37,853 nt of DNA from a virus (taxonomy: Duplodnaviria > Heunggongvirae > Uroviricota > Caudoviricetes): IMG/VR virus record IMGVR_UViG_2851971941_000003; one strand, written 5' to 3'. The notes beneath the pieces were generated by a model that saw only the letters and a program-made list of their open reading frames with translations, was not told where the DNA came from and searched no databases. Positions 6,158 through 25,143 of this stretch are shown piece by piece (the stretch's first letter is position 1; the number at the start of each line of letters is the position of its first letter). The translations under genes were made by a program, and so were the position numbers.

Positions 6158-7482
6158 TGCACTGGCACCTTCAGAGGGATCACCGGCACAAAGCCGGGAT
6201 GCGTAATGGCATTACGCCGGATAATGTCCGCGTCACGCGCCGCGTTATCAAACCAGGTCGCCGCCAGCACCAGCGCGGGTAAAACCTCATCCGGTGTGCG
6301 CTGAATGATCCGTGCAGACTGTTCAAGGCGCGTGTTGATATCCGCATTCAGATCTGCTTTCACCCGGCGCAGCGCCAGAAACAGCGCATCGCTGGTTGTA
6401 CGGGACAACTCCTTATCAATTGCCGTATTCAGTGTGTCGCGAATGTCAGTCAGTTCTTCCCACGTCGGCAGGTCAACCGTGTTTTTCACCGCCGGTGCAT
6501 TGTTCAGTGCCGGATGCGTGACGGAAGGCCAGCCAGTGCTCTGCGCGGGTGTTGTTGCCTGCCCCACTGCGGAATTCTGCATCACCGCGGAAGTTGTTGG
6601 CGCAGGCAATCGGGTGACGGCATACGCCGCTTCGCTGATTGCGGTCGTACGAAGGGTGCTGGCAACCACGTTACGCTGCTGCGTCGCCGTGGCGGTGGTT
6701 TTACTGTCCGTTTTCCAGACGCCGCGCGGTTGCAGATCGCTGCCGAGGCTGACACCGGAAAGCGTTTTGATCATGGTGACCAGGTCGCTGGCGTTACCAT
6801 AAAGGCGTTTCCCGGTACGCCACATTTTCTGCACCTGCTCAACGAAATTTTTGCCTGACGATGGCGGCGGCAGAAGTACCGAGATATCCCCCTGCAACAG
6901 CCTGGCGGCATCCGATACGGCAGAATCCACCACTTTCATCGCATCAGAAACATACCCCAGCATTATGCTGGCATTACCGATAACGTCGTTCTGCACGAAA
7001 TCCGCCACACCATCGATACTGAAACCGCTGAAGCTGTCACTGATGCAGTCATCCAGTGCAGAACAGGATGACATCAGCGTCTGCGCCGTCGCCGCACCTG
7101 ATGTGGGGTAAGAGAGTTCTCCTGCTTCGACAAACTTCAGGTCAAAGCGGACAATACGCCCTTCACTTTTCGATGTGCTGACCCGAACTTCCCCGTCAAC
7201 ACAGACTTTCAGCTCACCGTATGTCGGATGGACAAGCGTGCCGGGACCGGGTTTATTCAGCGCGTCAATCAGGCGATCGCGCTGGTCAAAGCAGTCATCT
7301 CCCACCACATAAGCCGTGATGGACGGGCGGAAAGTGACTTTTCCCAGATCTTCGGTATAGGGTTTGTCGCGGTTCGGGTATTCGTGCGTTTCCACACGGC
7401 GACCTGTTCCCGCACTTTCTTCTTCGACCTTAAACGGCACGCCGCGAAATGACGCGTCCTGAAGCCTGTCTTTCCACGTCAT
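6154..7482 (-). CDS. DNA circulation protein-like tail protein (Mu gp43 family)
   Basis: 442 aa; N-terminal region typical of the Mu gp43 family as I remember it; follows the tape measure gene as in Mu. Confidence 0.6.
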   Translation of the reverse strand: MTWKDRLQDASFRGVPFKVEEESAGTGRRVETHEYPNRDKPYTEDLGKVTFRPSITAYVVGDDCFDQRDRLIDALNKPGPGTLVHPTYGELKVCVDGEVRVSTSKSEGRIVRFDLKFVEAGELSYPTSGAATAQTLMSSCSALDDCISDSFSGFSIDGVADFVQNDVIGNASIMLGYVSDAMKVVDSAVSDAARLLQGDISVLLPPPSSGKNFVEQVQKMWRTGKRLYGNASDLVTMIKTLSGVSLGSDLQPRGVWKTDSKTTATATQQRNVVASTLRTTAISEAAYAVTRLPAPTTSAVMQNSAVGQATTPAQSTGWPSVTHPALNNAPAVKNTVDLPTWEELTDIRDTLNTAIDKELSRTTSDALFLALRRVKADLNADINTRLEQSARIIQRTPDEVLPALVLAATWFDNAARDADIIRRNAITHPGFVPVIPLKVPVQ

Positions 7483-20077: not shown

Positions 20078-20428
20078 TCACTTCAGCCGTTCACGGGCCG
20101 TCTTCGCCTTATGACACGGCCAGCACAGGCTCTGCAGATTGCTGTCGGCATCTGTGCCGCCATGCGCTTTAGGGATGATGTGGTCAACGGTTTTCGCCTC
20201 ACGTACCACACCAGCACGCAGACATAACTGACACAGTCCTTTATCACGCTTCAGCACGCACGCGCGGATAACATCCCACTTCGAACCGTAGCCGCGCTGG
20301 TGACGGGATTGTCCAGGTTTGTACTGCTTCCAGCCTTCGCTTTTGTGGCTTTCGCAGTAGCCTGACGGGTCTGTGGTTGTAGAGCGGCAGCCGCGAACAC
20401 GGCAGGCTTTTGGTGTTCGTGGTGGCAT
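20078..20428 (-). CDS. HNH endonuclease (terminase-associated)
   Basis: 116 aa; cysteine pairs and the H-N-H core (CQLC...DHIIPKAHGGTDADSNLQSLCWPCH) directly upstream of the small terminase, as in HK97-like packaging modules. Confidence 0.85.
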   Translation of the reverse strand: MPPRTPKACRVRGCRSTTTDPSGYCESHKSEGWKQYKPGQSRHQRGYGSKWDVIRACVLKRDKGLCQLCLRAGVVREAKTVDHIIPKAHGGTDADSNLQSLCWPCHKAKTARERLK

Positions 20429-20557
20429 GATAGGCTCCCCTCGTAAATGAGGTGATTCACAAAATGAAACAAAAAAAGCACTGGTAGTACCAGCATCCTA
20501 AATTACAGATTCCATAACATGCTCAATGCTGCTAATGGCAAGAAAGGATGTTTTTAA

Positions 20558-20770
20558 ATGACAAGCGATAATCTGGACTCCAAGCCCACAATTGAAGATG
20601 TTGATTTCAAGCATTTGATCTGCGTCGCAGGAGGAATCATCGAGGATCTAAAAGGCCCATTTATATTCAAGGCTCCAGAAAATATTAGGCGATTACTTAA
20701 TCATAAGGGAGTGAATGAAATAAGTAATCTCTCTCAAAAATTTAATGCAGATTCTCCATCTTGCTATTAG
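20558..20770 (+). CDS. AT-rich hypothetical protein (70 aa)
   Basis: Plus-strand ORF in an AT-rich island, convergent with the membrane-protein gene. Confidence 0.3.
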   Translation: MTSDNLDSKPTIEDVDFKHLICVAGGIIEDLKGPFIFKAPENIRRLLNHKGVNEISNLSQKFNADSPSCY

Positions 20771-20846
20771 AGTTCAGCAGCAGGCACTCAGTGAATGCCT
20801 GCTGTAACGACTACTCCAATAATAATGGATGCTCTATGGATACATA

Positions 20847-21440
20847 CTAAAATATGGATGTTAAATAATTGCTAAGTCTTTTTGCATTCTTACAGAATGC
20901 CAAAGCATCTTCCTGAGTACATAAGAGCTTTCCTTGGGATATAGGCTTAATAGACTCTCCTGTTTTTTCATAGAGCTTAACAATGTCACTAGAAATTTTG
21001 TTTGCAGATTGGACATTTTTCAAGGCAGCGATACCTGAAGCCCGCCCTAAAGATGTCCCGTTGATCTCAATCCCCTTTTTAGATGCAAGCGTTATAGCGG
21101 TTAACTCCAATTCGCGCCAAGCTGAAAGTACAGCAACATTAGGCTGAGTACTAGCAAGACTCTCAAAAATATTGAAATTCTCAATGAGTTGAGTCGGCAG
21201 GACAGGATTTGTTCCAGGTAAATTTTTAATAACCTCTATACTTTTAGATTCTATTTCAAACATTTCTTTTTTAAATTTAATCTCATAGTCACCTAGCTTA
21301 ACTGTATTAAGACGACCTAAAACCATTATTATTTCTTTTTTTAAAGTAAAAAAGACAATCAAACAAGCAAGAACAATAAATAAAACATTGCCTTCTTTAA
21401 GAAGCATCTCTATCCAGTAAAAAAAAGTATAGTCCGTCAT
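20847..21440 (-). CDS. AT-rich membrane-anchored hypothetical protein (197 aa)
   Basis: N-terminal hydrophobic helix (VLFIVLACLIVFFTL) then a soluble domain; lies between the lysis cassette and the HNH gene. Confidence 0.55.
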   Translation of the reverse strand: MTDYTFFYWIEMLLKEGNVLFIVLACLIVFFTLKKEIIMVLGRLNTVKLGDYEIKFKKEMFEIESKSIEVIKNLPGTNPVLPTQLIENFNIFESLASTQPNVAVLSAWRELELTAITLASKKGIEINGTSLGRASGIAALKNVQSANKISSDIVKLYEKTGESIKPISQGKLLCTQEDALAFCKNAKRLSNYLTSIF

Positions 21441-21634
21441 TTTCAGTTCTCAAATAGAAATAGTTCTCTCAGTATACGTATATTGAACTCTGCTATCACT
21501 TAGTTTATACAACGTTATGCTGGCCACACGCTCGTAGTTGACGTGCATGTGGCTACTCGCTATTTTAGGTATTTGGGACATCTTCATTAATGCTGAACAG
21601 GCACTTCTTGCTGCGGTCTTTCCACTTTACTGCT

Positions 21635-21892
21635 TCATGGCTCACTCTTCTCTGCTTCAATTTTACGAATATCAGCCTTATCCCTATTACAGGCAGCCAG
21701 CACTGACAGCAGGCTCACGTTTAAATCCAGACTATCTTTGTAAGTCAGCGGATCAGGAATAGCTGGCTGTGGGGTTTCAGCGGTCAGGTTCGCCGGTAGT
21801 GGTACCGCCGGAACTGGCACGTAAATTGTCCGCGTACCGGCGCAGCCGCTCAGTTGCACGAGCAGGAACAAGACGGGAAGCGCAATCATCAT
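21635..21892 (-). CDS. o-spanin (Rz1-like lipoprotein), overlapping the i-spanin in another frame
   Basis: Starts inside the Rz-like gene; lipobox LSGC after a hydrophobic signal; proline-rich mature region. Confidence 0.5.
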   Translation of the reverse strand: MMIALPVLFLLVQLSGCAGTRTIYVPVPAVPLPANLTAETPQPAIPDPLTYKDSLDLNVSLLSVLAACNRDKADIRKIEAEKSEP

Positions 21893-22169
21893 TCTCAACA
21901 GCCACTTTGATATCTTCCTGGGTTCTCTGTGACTCCAGTGCGATCTGCTGTTTTGCATGCTGGTTAGCCTCCAGAACTGTATTTAAGATTTGTATTGATT
22001 GCAGGACGTTATTGGTAATGGCAGTTGCCGATTCAGCATTTTGTACAGCCTCATCAGCACGTTTCTTTTCATGCTGATATTTGCTGTAGTAGTAATTCGC
22101 TGACCAGATGAAAGAGCCAATGACAGTAAAGAAGAAAGCAGAGATAGCCAACTTATAACTCAACTTCAT
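21777..22169 (-). CDS. i-spanin (Rz-like)
   Basis: 130 aa, N-terminal TM helix then coiled-coil-like region; directly after the endolysin. Confidence 0.6.
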   Translation of the reverse strand: MKLSYKLAISAFFFTVIGSFIWSANYYYSKYQHEKKRADEAVQNAESATAITNNVLQSIQILNTVLEANQHAKQQIALESQRTQEDIKVAVENDDCASRLVPARATERLRRYADNLRASSGGTTTGEPDR

Positions 22170-22629
22170 TTACCACCCCACCAGCCTCTTTAAATCGGGC
22201 AATCAGGTCACCGATTCTATGTTCATACTGACCGTAACCAGCACCCGGCAATGAAGCCCAGATATTGCTGCAACGGTCGATTGCCTGACGGATATCGCCG
22301 CGATCAATCATCGGTAAAGCGCCACGCTCTTTAATCTGCAGCAATGCCACTGCGTCCTGGTTTTTGGGGGAGAAGTCTTTCAAACCAAGCTGTTTACGGT
22401 AAGCATCCCACCAACGGGAAAGAAGCTGGTAACGTCCGGCGGCTGTTGATTTGAGTTTTGGGTTCAGCATGACAAGTTTGCGAGGATGATCGGAGTAATC
22501 AGTGAACAGTTCGCCCCCCACAATAACGTCATAACCGTGGTTACGTGTCGGTTGTCGCCCGTTATCCGTTCCTTCTGACCAGGCCACCATATCTAGGAAA
22601 GCTTTACGCTGGGGATTTAGTTCCTGCAT
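22153..22629 (-). CDS. R: Endolysin, lambda R-like lytic transglycosylase
   Basis: 158 aa; near-identical over most of its length to lambda R as I remember it (NPQRKAFLDMVAWSEGTDNGRQPTRNHGYDVIVGGELFTDYSDHPRKLV...). Confidence 0.9.
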   Translation of the reverse strand: MQELNPQRKAFLDMVAWSEGTDNGRQPTRNHGYDVIVGGELFTDYSDHPRKLVMLNPKLKSTAAGRYQLLSRWWDAYRKQLGLKDFSPKNQDAVALLQIKERGALPMIDRGDIRQAIDRCSNIWASLPGAGYGQYEHRIGDLIARFKEAGGVVNEVEL

Positions 22630-22632
22630 AAA

Positions 22633-22959
22633 TTACTCCTTCGAGCTACCAAATTTGTTACCGATTACTCGCATTGCAGCCCCACGAATAGCATCGACAC
22701 CGATCAGCCCAACGCCGCCACCAATGGCAACAGAAAGCGATTTAGGCCATCCGACATACTCAAGAGCGGATGCAAAAGTCAGCGTCAGAGCACCACAGAG
22801 CAAAATCTCGAGCGTTTTTCGTTTCCAGCCACCACCACTGCCAAAATAGGCAATACGTAAACCAGCCATAACGATCGACATAATCACTGCGCCCAGCGGT
22901 GTGTCTCCACGCCACCAGCTCTGGACCAACTCCAGCCAGGTATTTGGGTTATGAGGCAT
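22633..22959 (-). CDS. Holin-like membrane protein
   Basis: 108 aa with several hydrophobic segments, immediately upstream of the endolysin. Confidence 0.6.
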   Translation of the reverse strand: MPHNPNTWLELVQSWWRGDTPLGAVIMSIVMAGLRIAYFGSGGGWKRKTLEILLCGALTLTFASALEYVGWPKSLSVAIGGGVGLIGVDAIRGAAMRVIGNKFGSSKE

Positions 22960-23099
22960 TTGTAGTTATCTCTCACCTCGCCGATACAGGAGGTGCAAAT
23001 TGAGGGAGTACCACGAACCGCAAATCAGAAGCGGAAACGTAAAAGAAGCCGAGCCAATGGATAAGTACTAGATAGAACAAGCCCAACGAATACCAAGGC

Positions 23100-23133
23100 C
23101 CAGAAACGACAAAACCCGCTCAATGGCGGGTTT
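23100..23133 (-). terminator. Minus-strand rho-independent terminator upstream of the holin (tR'-like)
   Basis: Stem aaacccgc/gcgggttt with 6-nt loop, followed on the minus strand by a U-rich tract. Confidence 0.45.
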
Positions 23134-23178
23134 AAGCTGTGTGGCGACGTAACCACTCTTAACACGATACAATACTTT

Positions 23179-23207
23179 TTGCGTACGCGTTAGCATTTTA
23201 GTAATAT
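23179..23207 (+). promoter_or_regulatory. Sigma70-like promoter for the three-gene cassette
   Basis: TTGCGT - 17 bp - TAATAT, about 35 nt upstream of the ATG at 23241. Not validated. Confidence 0.35.
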
Positions 23208-23240
23208 TCTGAAGTACGTTTATCTATTGAATCTATACAA

Positions 23241-24332
23241 ATGAAGAAAATCGAAAAACTGTTCACTGAAGTAATACGGAAGTTGCGCCATAAGAAATTT
23301 ATGCGCTCGATAGCTAGTAAAAGAAGCACAACAGAAAGAAAGCTAAAACGTAATGGAAGTTTAAAAAAAATCGCTCCAGAGAAAATACTTGCTCCAACCA
23401 TACTTGATATTTACAAGGCGGAATATCATGAGAATGTGGTTAATTTTATAGAAAAAATAGAAAACAAAGCAAAGACAGGAAATAAAAAGATATATATATG
23501 TTTTAGAAATACAATTCATATATCGGCTGCTGCTGGCTTATTTCTTCTTGCAAAACTAGAGACGTTAAAAAGCAATCATAGGGACTTAAAATATATCGTA
23601 GCCAAACCGCCAATCAAAACTTCATCAAAAGGAGAACAGCACGTTGTTGATTCTGTTTTGAACAGAATCGGAATCTATGCAGCATTAGGTGTTAAATCAA
23701 GAGAAATGAGAGAAACTCCGTCTGTAAAATGTTGGGAGGTAATTCGTGGCGAACTAGTAGATTCGGAAATTGCAGGAAACTTATTAGAAACAATCACAGA
23801 AAAAATGGGTACCGATTATACAGATTTATATCGTCCCTTGATAGAAGCCATGTCTAATTCAGTAGAACATGCATATCGAGACGATTTATATGACTCAAAT
23901 AAAAATAACAATAAAAATAAATGGTGGTGCTTTGCTGCAATTATGAACAACAAGTTAATATTACTAATTTGTGACCTCGGTGTAGGTATACCTAAAACGT
24001 TAAAACTTACTCAAGGTGAAAAGGTTCTTGCAAAGCTAACCGAGTTCCTTGGTAAGCCATTAGTCCTTGATTCAGAACATATAAAAGCCTCATTGCAGGT
24101 TAAACGAACCCGAACAAAGCTTGGATACAGAGGGAAAGGAGGAACTGATTTACAATCTATCATAGAAAACTTTGAAAATGCACAATTACGAATTATATCC
24201 AACAAAGGAAATTACAGATATACTCATCGTAAGAAAGCAAGACCAGAGTTAATGTGGGATGCCAAACATTCCATCAACGGTACTATAGTTGAATGGAGCG
24301 TACCGCTACCAAATGAAGGAGACTCTCAATGA
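23241..24332 (+). CDS. GHKL-superfamily ATPase / RsbW-like kinase-fold protein with unassigned basic N-terminal domain
   Basis: 363 aa; N-box EAMSNSVEHAY (aa 202-212), G1 box DLGVG (aa 245-249), G2-like GYRGKGGTD (aa 296-304). AT-rich; stop overlaps the next start (ATGA). Confidence 0.75.
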   Translation: MKKIEKLFTEVIRKLRHKKFMRSIASKRSTTERKLKRNGSLKKIAPEKILAPTILDIYKAEYHENVVNFIEKIENKAKTGNKKIYICFRNTIHISAAAGLFLLAKLETLKSNHRDLKYIVAKPPIKTSSKGEQHVVDSVLNRIGIYAALGVKSREMRETPSVKCWEVIRGELVDSEIAGNLLETITEKMGTDYTDLYRPLIEAMSNSVEHAYRDDLYDSNKNNNKNKWWCFAAIMNNKLILLICDLGVGIPKTLKLTQGEKVLAKLTEFLGKPLVLDSEHIKASLQVKRTRTKLGYRGKGGTDLQSIIENFENAQLRIISNKGNYRYTHRKKARPELMWDAKHSINGTIVEWSVPLPNEGDSQ

Positions 24333-24646
24333 AAACCTTATTTATCAAGGACTTTTCAAGATTCCCGGGGCCTAGATACGAAAGGTTAGGTGAAAACAGT
24401 GGCGAAAAATTCCGCGATTTATTTTTGATACCAGCACTTAACGAAAATCCAGACTTAGTCATTGACTTTGATGGTGTTTTTGGCTATGGCTCATCTTTCC
24501 TTGAGGAGGCCTTTGGAGGTTTGGTGCGTAAAGGGATAGAGCGCGAAAAATTGGAGAAGCTTAAGAAGAATCTCAAAAGTAAAGATCAATACATTATTGA
24601 GGAAGTAATTTCATATATTGATGATGCTCTGCGAGATCTAAAATAA
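24329..24646 (+). CDS. STAS-like small protein (DUF4325-type), candidate partner of the ATPase
   Basis: 105 aa; block DFDGVFGYGSSFLEEAFGGL matches my memory of the DUF4325 STAS-like family; translationally coupled on both sides. Confidence 0.65.
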   Translation: MKTLFIKDFSRFPGPRYERLGENSGEKFRDLFLIPALNENPDLVIDFDGVFGYGSSFLEEAFGGLVRKGIEREKLEKLKKNLKSKDQYIIEEVISYIDDALRDLK

Positions 24647-25107
24647 TGGACACTGACGTTACTCAGAATTTATGGACAATGCCTGCAACGATTATAGCGA
24701 TTGTTGGCATTTTTTTAACAATATTAGGCTGGATAGTTACAGCAATACTTACTCGCATTAACAATGCGAAGAATTTAAAAAAACTAGAAATAAATAGACT
24801 TATTGATGAGTTATTTTATAAATTAGATTTTATTTATAGCGAAATGCTTGAATTGCTGCGAGACGATAAAAAAGACAAACAAGTCCTATATTACATTTTT
24901 ACATCATCAGTAAGGCATGTTGAGTTTATTTGCGAGCGAATTGAACTATTAGACAACAAAAAAAACAAAGACAATGGATTAATATCTGAATTAAGACAAG
25001 CATGTACTAACGATGCGAAATATGAAAAAGAAAAAATTGGAACAACATTACATGAAATCCAAAGCGCTAATGAAAAACTCAAAAACAAATATCTGAAATC
25101 ATTTTAA
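24646..25107 (+). CDS. Small membrane protein (one N-terminal TM helix, charged coiled-coil-like tail), candidate effector
   Basis: 153 aa; TM segment about aa 11-36 (TMPATIIAIVGIFLTILGWIVTAIL); start overlaps the previous stop (TAATG). Confidence 0.6.
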   Translation: MDTDVTQNLWTMPATIIAIVGIFLTILGWIVTAILTRINNAKNLKKLEINRLIDELFYKLDFIYSEMLELLRDDKKDKQVLYYIFTSSVRHVEFICERIELLDNKKNKDNGLISELRQACTNDAKYEKEKIGTTLHEIQSANEKLKNKYLKSF

Positions 25108-25109
25108 TT

Positions 25110-25143
25110 AAAAAAGAACCGGCTAAGCCGCCGGTTCTTTTTT
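25110..25143. terminator. Bidirectional rho-independent terminator between the cassette and Q
   Basis: A6 - gaaccggc - taagcc - gccggttc - T6: 8-bp GC-rich stem flanked by A-run and T-run; the T-run overlaps the Q stop codon. Confidence 0.6.

Follow-up and report, generated by a model that had tools for sequence, protein, structure and literature searches.

The window analyzed here is a stretch of 37,853 nucleotides from a virus of the Caudoviricetes (IMG/VR record IMGVR_UViG_2851971941_000003), which represents a prophage of Escherichia coli, lambdoid and of the HK97 type, whose late genes lie on the minus strand. We focus on an AT-rich island of this prophage (positions 20429-21634) that holds two convergent genes separated by a gap of 76 bp, namely ORF197, encoding a membrane protein of 197 amino acids (aa), and the much smaller ORF70. 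An initial annotation of this DNA had located both open reading frames (ORFs) between the spanin and the HNH/terminase genes and had described them as AT-rich, which is borne out by their G+C contents (GC) of 0.342 (ORF197) and 0.376 (ORF70). It had also held that neither protein resembles a family. For ORF197 this no longer stands, as sequence comparison identifies it as very probably a divergent, catalytically degenerate member of the WP-TM/DUF4145-like HEPN family, in its family assignment as well as in its architecture (TM, transmembrane). The features of the gene are as follows.

20847..21440, minus strand: ORF197, 197 aa; PGAP hypothetical protein WP_001560812.1; matches phrog_30030
21342..21392, minus strand: single N-terminal TM helix of ORF197, codons 17-33; from hydropathy, flank charges and alignment A2
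20850..21194, minus strand: HEPN-fold helical domain of ORF197, codons about 83-197; predicted cytoplasmic
20934..20960, minus strand: degenerate motif site of ORF197, codons 161-169, GESIKPISQ; from alignment A2 and hhalign
21420..21427, minus strand: T8 homopolymer in ORF197, codons 5-8 (coding strand); frameshift site in one strain
21471..21499, minus strand: promoter-like site of the sigma-70 type, GTGATA-17-TATACT; distance to the downstream ORF197 start about 30 bp; from a scan of the window

In the protein, a single TM helix at the N-terminus is followed by a long juxtamembrane helix and then by the HEPN-fold domain at the C-terminus, the domain being a four-helix up-down bundle with the topology of the HEPN superfamily. 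The membrane anchor proposed in the initial annotation is supported by one strongly hydrophobic segment (residues 17-33, GNVLFIVLACLIVFFTL; Kyte-Doolittle mean 2.64), and the topology prediction that it had suggested gives a single TM helix with an N-out/C-in orientation under the positive-inside rule (net charge -2 in the N-terminal flank and +3 in the C-terminal flank). Start calls disagree for this gene, with M1 in most strains, M12 in two strains (PGAP), and M39 in phrog_30030. The two shorter starts were rejected because residues 1-38 are conserved among the homologs, including F7, W9, and E11-M12.

Direct scans of ORF197 and ORF70 with Pfam, PADLOC, and NCBIfam gave nothing useful, and phrog_30030 has no assigned function. 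In Pfam, ORF197 matches nothing at E<=1, and hence it does not qualify as DUF4145 (PF13643) by a match of its own. The relationship emerges through its relatives. A word-indexed protein search yielded six diverged homologs (47-69% identity, mostly 196-197 aa); when these are aligned with the window protein and with an E. coli cluster representative that is 99% identical to it, 49 columns are invariant, among them several of the N-terminal helix. An exhaustive profile search yielded 264 representatives at E<=1e-3, nearly all of them 180-200 aa long and alignable all the way from the TM helix to the C-terminus, in the same layout as ORF197. Among them, P0013 passes the cutoff of Pfam DUF4145 (24.4 versus 23.1 bits), P0015 and P0020 fall just below it, and there are weak matches of such relatives to other HEPN models. 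When the window clade was compared by hhalign with a canonical set of 25 members, the two aligned over 184 columns (columns 8-196) at 99.8% probability (E 5e-29), at an identity of about 22%. The initial annotation had proposed profile and structure searches; Foldseek against PDB and BFVD returned nothing significant, and a profile search of PDB sequences gave HEPN matches below threshold only.

Anantharaman et al. (2013, Biol Direct 8:15; PMC3710099) described the family as the fusion of a WP-TM helix with a DUF4145-like HEPN domain that is predicted to be cytoplasmic, and they predicted that the family processes or degrades RNA at the inner face of the membrane. This computational work is the sole description that we found in the literature, where our search returned no experimental study of the family. 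Examples are the Vibrio cholerae protein gi 153825856 and orf24 of the P1-like Escherichia phage D6 (NC_050154 25650-26207; locus L035, 4001-4558), a WP-TM-DUF4145 protein that is matched by the canonical member P0015 and whose gene directly follows the darA/ddrA/ddrB anti-restriction operon. ORF197 shares with the family a length of about 180-200 aa (around 190 aa in the typical layout), the single N-terminal TM helix, the C-terminal HEPN domain, R43, G50, and F56 of the juxtamembrane helix, and a W-R-E-x-E motif in helix 2. It differs in having lost both the strict WP signature and the RNxxxH motif, and in that its clade forms an AT-rich cassette in prophage accessory slots.

Both losses are apparent from the alignments. 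In the canonical set (A9), W13 and P14 of the TM helix and R151 and H156 of the motif are invariant, and RNxxxH is present in 112 of the 148 distant relatives examined. In the window clade (alignment A2), on the other hand, the W-P columns show I/V/W followed by V/L/T/A, and GESIKPISQ stands where the relatives have LRxLRNxAxH, so that the catalytic Arg and His are gone and no Rx4-6H motif is left. The clade consensus at this site reads G-E/D-S/A-I/V-K-P/L-I/L-S. Intermediate branches carry partly decayed motifs (RNQAIG in P0014; RKLAxN/D in P0022, P0024, and P0025), and from these sequences the loss looks graded across branches. Non-catalytic HEPN families are known (PMC3710099). In RAZR, a DUF4145 RNase with a role in defense, alanine in place of the corresponding Arg and His abolished defense. 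Because ORF197 lacks these very residues, we regard it as a predicted nuclease-dead protein.

ORF197 and its homologs behave as a cassette. In four other loci the family gene has a GC of 0.34-0.36 within surrounding DNA of 0.42-0.49. Promoter-like sites comparable to that of the window occur at a similar upstream position in loci L003, L004, and L009; the one in L006 was read by eye from the alignment, the scan's own match in that locus lying elsewhere. A GTTnAATA box is conserved in the upstream alignment of the family genes. In L004 and in L009 a clean terminator stands behind the gene; in the window there is a hairpin lacking a U-tract. In three different lysis cassettes the gene lies directly behind the spanin genes on the same strand, namely those of the window (GH24), L003 (Phage_lysozyme and Phage_lysis), and L004 (GH19 and DUF2570). 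Elsewhere it is found beside a UmuD-like gene (L006) or a glycosyltransferase moron (L009). All contexts examined are prophage accessory regions, and together with the base composition they fit a self-contained moron.

Not all alleles are intact. The T8 run of ORF197 is shortened to T7 in E. coli AR_0061 (L002, about 6990-7000), where the PGAP product has 186 aa, and an A8-to-A7 frameshift removes the TM helix in L009-L012 (L009, about 1255-1275). Such homopolymer frameshifts in independent lineages could be decay or, alternatively, slipped-strand on/off switching.

We now move on to the smaller gene, with the following features.

20558..20770, plus strand: ORF70, 70 aa; phrog_22590; orientation opposite to the late genes (bor/iss-like)
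20776..20805, no strand assigned: GC-rich hairpin that follows the stop of ORF70 by 6 nt and that of ORF197 by 42 nt; neither strand has a U-tract
20479..20495, minus strand: weak stem resembling a terminator, with T7 behind it, in the space that separates ORF70 from the HNH gene; from a pattern scan; doubtful

An initial search with ORF70 recovered near-identical copies only, PGAP annotates the gene in none of the genomes examined, and it has no Pfam match. A sensitive DNA search, however, found a 70%-identical stretch in the same slot of five other E. coli genomes. There (L032/L033), a 69-aa ORF has 58-63% aa identity to ORF70, depending on the alignment, with start and stop codons aligned, indels in threes, and the AGGA(G) ribosome-binding site kept. 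The ratio of nonsynonymous to synonymous substitution rates (dN/dS) between the two is 0.16, with a saturated dS. A third lineage is represented by P0160 in L034, at about 57% identity. Judged by this conservation, ORF70 is a real, conserved, and separately inherited coding gene. A sigma-70 consensus was not found upstream of it in any of the three lineages, and its AlphaFold2 model was uninformative (pLDDT 51) and therefore too poor for a fold search.

In all three lineages the ORF70 homolog abuts the HNH start directly, in divergent orientation, and only a few bases behind it comes the GC-rich hairpin (10-12 bp, about -20 kcal/mol, z-score about -3 to -4), which is thus kept in L032 and L034. 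In the window the hairpin has a free energy of -20.4 kcal/mol on the plus and -22.7 kcal/mol on the minus strand (z-score about -3.8). Between the hairpin and the lysis cassette, by contrast, each lineage has a gene of its own, namely that of ORF197 (on the opposite strand), of the 113-aa phrog_12178 protein, or of the 173-aa HTH_3 protein. ORF70 and its hairpin are thus the constant element beside HNH, and the neighboring gene is exchangeable. Both alternative partners are encoded on the strand of ORF70 (the Xre-type HTH_3 gene at L034 1022-1543; the phrog_12178 gene at L032 4328-4669). The hairpin stem (GCAGGCA...TGCCTGC) is kept at 20776-20805 of the window, at about 780-810 of L034, and at about 4160-4185 of L032, and the loop of L034, TTCACTGAG, is the reverse complement of the window loop, CTCAGTGAA, as if the element had been inverted. 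The putative minus-strand terminator at 20479-20495 was rejected, as it folds no better than shuffled sequence (z-score -1.05) and is not conserved in L032 or L034.

The island as a whole and its surroundings can be listed as follows.

20429..21634, no strand assigned: AT-rich cargo island, 1206 bp, reaching exactly from the start codon of HNH to the stop codon of Rz1/LysC
20078-20428, minus strand: HNH endonuclease gene, left slot boundary; Pfam HNH 60.1 bits; PGAP annotation
21635-21958, minus strand: Rz1/LysC o-spanin gene, right slot boundary; Pfam LysC 60.6 bits; PGAP annotation
21777-22169, minus strand: Rz (i-spanin), on the lysis side of the island; overlaps Rz1/LysC
22153-22629, minus strand: GH24 lysozyme, on the lysis side
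22633-22959, minus strand: holin, on the lysis side

Beyond HNH follow TerS and then TerL, both on the minus strand. In CP069522 (L001), PGAP annotates lysC and omits the overlapping Rz ORF. The island has a GC of 0.368, compared with 0.56 in the left flank, 0.49 in the right flank, and 0.507 in the whole window; segments of 1206 bp reach this AT content in only 3.7% of cases, nearly all of them inside the island or inside a second AT-rich island near 23000-25141. An Rfam scan of the island found no RNA family.

Among 5426 complete E. coli genomes, 19 carry the island, every copy at an identity of at least 99%. A query that contained the flanks matched 2840 genomes, and the island is present in those 19 only. 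Homology to collinear prophages ends at 20428/20429 and at about 21626-21697. What these prophages hold in between differs. In CP072204 (L019) the slot is empty, with 26 bp between the LysC stop and the HNH start; in others it contains the bor homolog iss (L021), DUF6979 with a 67-aa gene (L022), a pair of plus-strand hypothetical genes (L020), or, in a further collinear prophage, a GrlR-family gene. In HK97-like prophages of E. coli, the LysC-HNH junction is therefore a hotspot for cargo (moron) genes, and the island itself has the marks of a phage moron, being present or absent among collinear phages and foreign in base composition (GC 0.37 versus 0.49-0.56). The initial annotation had spoken of the bor position, a slot for lysogenic conversion, and rightly so because collinear prophages hold iss/bor in the same place. 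The likeness to lambda bor and the E. coli iss lipoprotein is limited to this slot and, for ORF70, to the orientation against the late genes. ORF197 is oriented with the late operon, which corrects the earlier account, as only ORF70 has the bor/iss orientation. In Pfam and NCBIfam neither protein matches Bor/Iss, and neither N-terminus has a lipobox, so that homology and a lipoprotein signal are both lacking.

Whether the two genes belong together is a separate question. The initial annotation had speculated about a toxin-antitoxin-like functional pair, and at first sight their co-occurrence is complete: ORF70 is present beside every one of the 19 ORF197 copies in E. coli. Since these copies form one lineage at an identity of at least 99%, they count as a single observation. 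In the five other E. coli genomes and in L034, ORF70 homologs have other partners and no ORF197, and tblastn found no ORF70 in the DNA available from five diverged ORF197 loci (0.4-2 kb downstream of the gene). Co-occurrence across lineages is thus not seen, and as each gene occurs without the other, they do not form an obligate module. ORF197 and ORF70 are two independent accessory genes, and the notion of a functional pair finds no support.

Several known systems help to place ORF197. Single-protein HEPN defenses of prophages include HepS (Gifsy-1) and Tha (Staphylococcus aureus phages), the latter accompanied by ith, a small antisense inhibitor gene; RAZR and Ishtar are DUF4145 RNases in defense. 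HepS, Tha, and RAZR are soluble and need an intact Rx4-6H motif, whereas ORF197 is membrane-anchored and lacks it. Csx28, an accessory protein of type VI-B2 CRISPR, resembles ORF197 in layout, as it is small and combines an N-terminal TM helix with a cytoplasmic, divergent HEPN four-helix bundle. It acts as an octameric membrane pore that depolarizes infected cells and has no nuclease activity. The TM plus HEPN layout is all that the two have in common; ORF197 shows neither specific homology to Csx28 nor linkage to cas13b, and because no specific similarity was found, the comparison is only an analogy. FS_HEPN_TM of DefenseFinder, finally, is a two-protein system.

The explanation that we favor, tentatively and with slightly less than an even chance of being right in full, is that of a moron slot with two independent genes, in which ORF197 would be a lysogen-expressed, non-nuclease membrane protein of phage conflict. 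In the lysogen, a sigma-70 promoter of its own would drive transcription of the gene, and late read-through under Q antitermination would transcribe it a second time. According to the positive-inside rule, the HEPN domain would face the cytoplasm. Because the nuclease residues are lost and purifying selection nevertheless persists, we infer a non-catalytic role at the membrane, where ORF197 may serve phage-phage conflict as its sensor or effector, by superinfection exclusion or by abortive infection. The HEPN and DUF4145 defense proteins named above, and Csx28 as a pore, are precedents for such a role. It is conceivable that the protein oligomerizes and perturbs the membrane, as does the TM-HEPN protein Csx28. 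An exclusion or defense role, which the initial annotation had raised as speculation, is plausible by inference, and we rate it as possible, with odds somewhat below even.

Critically speaking, several points weigh against this explanation. The promoter calls are consensus matches, and the scan of the window gave six sites where shuffled sequence gave a mean of 3.8. Three of the five distinct contexts place the gene directly behind the spanins and on their strand, which would also suit a link to lysis. No PADLOC model matches ORF197, its gene was not found by megablast/tblastn among GenBank phages and PLSDB plasmids, and two scans of species-representative genomes confirmed no ORF197 locus. 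Lastly, since frameshifted alleles exist, the gene appears dispensable in some lineages.

If ORF197 were a lysis accessory made from the late transcript, it would modulate the function or the timing of holin, endolysin, or spanin at the inner membrane, for instance in the way of an antiholin or a lysis-inhibition factor. This would agree with its predicted inner-membrane location, with the fact that read-through to HNH and terminase necessarily transcribes it, and with the three unrelated lysis cassettes mentioned above. We nonetheless consider it quite unlikely, as the family also occurs away from lysis genes (L006, L009), most collinear prophages lyse without ORF197 (the island being absent from all but 19 of the flank-matched genomes), and the gene has a promoter-like site and a foreign base composition of its own. 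Moreover, ORF197 matched no holin, antiholin, or spanin family in Pfam or among the annotated PHROG lysis families. The chance is slimmer that the two genes act as a module, with ORF197 as a toxic or defense effector and the antisense-oriented ORF70 as its inhibitor (as in Tha/ith) or as its partner in a toxin-antitoxin-like pair. Tha and Ith do offer the precedent of a HEPN defense protein whose inhibitor is encoded by a small gene in antisense context, ORF70 is genuine and accompanies each of the 19 ORF197 copies in E. coli, and convergent genes with a common hairpin are expected to have overlapping transcription. Against this stand the single lineage behind those copies, the phrog_12178 and HTH_3 partners of the ORF70 homologs, and the diverged ORF197 loci in which ORF70 was not found. 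That the island is a decaying relic, i.e., non-functional hitch-hiking DNA, appears extremely unlikely. Its rare and patchy distribution and the frameshift alleles at homopolymers would be in line with decay, but the ORF is kept at full length down to 47% identity with its 49 invariant columns, the changes within E. coli are five synonymous to five nonsynonymous (three of them I-to-V), and the low dN/dS of ORF70 points the same way.

Other alternatives concern the HEPN domain itself. ORF197 could still be an RNase that cuts RNA at the membrane through substitute residues such as R133, K141, K165, or S168, which are invariant in the clade, in keeping with the RNA degradation predicted for the parent family (PMC3710099). 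We deem this very unlikely, given that both HEPN-defining catalytic residues are missing in all seven clade members of alignment A2 and that replacing their RAZR counterparts was enough to abolish defense. As a decoy against host defense or rivals, the dead membrane HEPN would act as a dominant negative, poisoning the active WP-TM-HEPN RNases of host or rival prophages by forming heterodimers with them. Published work on HEPN defense proteins indicates that HEPN RNases need dimer-composite active sites, and ORF197 keeps the full architecture and the WRELE motif of helix 2, with only the R/H motif and WP lost; in addition, it would be co-transcribed with the late genes, and phage D6 of E. coli encodes a presumably active family member. 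Yet the loci examined yielded no active WP-TM-HEPN gene, the promoter-like site suggests a role in lysogeny, and heterodimerization is doubtful at an identity of only about 22% between the clade and canonical members, all of which makes a decoy improbable in our view. A broader idea, unlikely as a whole, is that of a membrane HEPN clade repurposed for work without RNA cleavage, either as a standalone Csx28-like effector or as a decoy against active membrane HEPN RNases. ORF70 and its hairpin would then be an anchor or regulator beside exchangeable cargo, like Aca genes beside variable anti-CRISPR genes. In its Csx28-like version, ORF197 would be a pore or depolarizer made in lysogens and again at the time of lysis.

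The holin gene and the Q antiterminator enclose the second AT-rich island of the window (23000-25141, GC 0.35), which contains plus-strand ORFs at 23241-24332, 24329-24646, and 24646-25107. The first encodes a 363-aa protein (phrog_3364) in which GHKL-ATPase-like boxes can be recognized by eye (NSVEHA, DLGVGIP, GKGGTDL); its gene is translationally coupled to that of a 105-aa STAS-like DUF4325 protein, which is followed by the 153-aa ORF. This layout recalls anti-sigma/anti-anti-sigma partner-switching pairs, and PADLOC gave no match for it. In L032 the holin-to-Q slot holds two other hypothetical genes.

Most likely, ORF197 will turn out to be one more prophage accessory or defense gene, and the finding would be an ordinary one if it is a plain accessory without phenotype. 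Even so, the LysC-HNH junction is now documented as a cargo hotspot, and a conserved 70-aa gene that annotation has passed over marks the slot. Beside this small gene sits a variant of a computationally known family that has lost both WP and RNxxxH. Being a compact, presumably nuclease-dead, and putatively promoter-bearing cassette that nature has provided in E. coli prophages, it should be an easy system to work with, and ORF197 could show what a membrane-tethered HEPN domain does without cutting RNA, whether it senses, forms a pore, or acts as a decoy.

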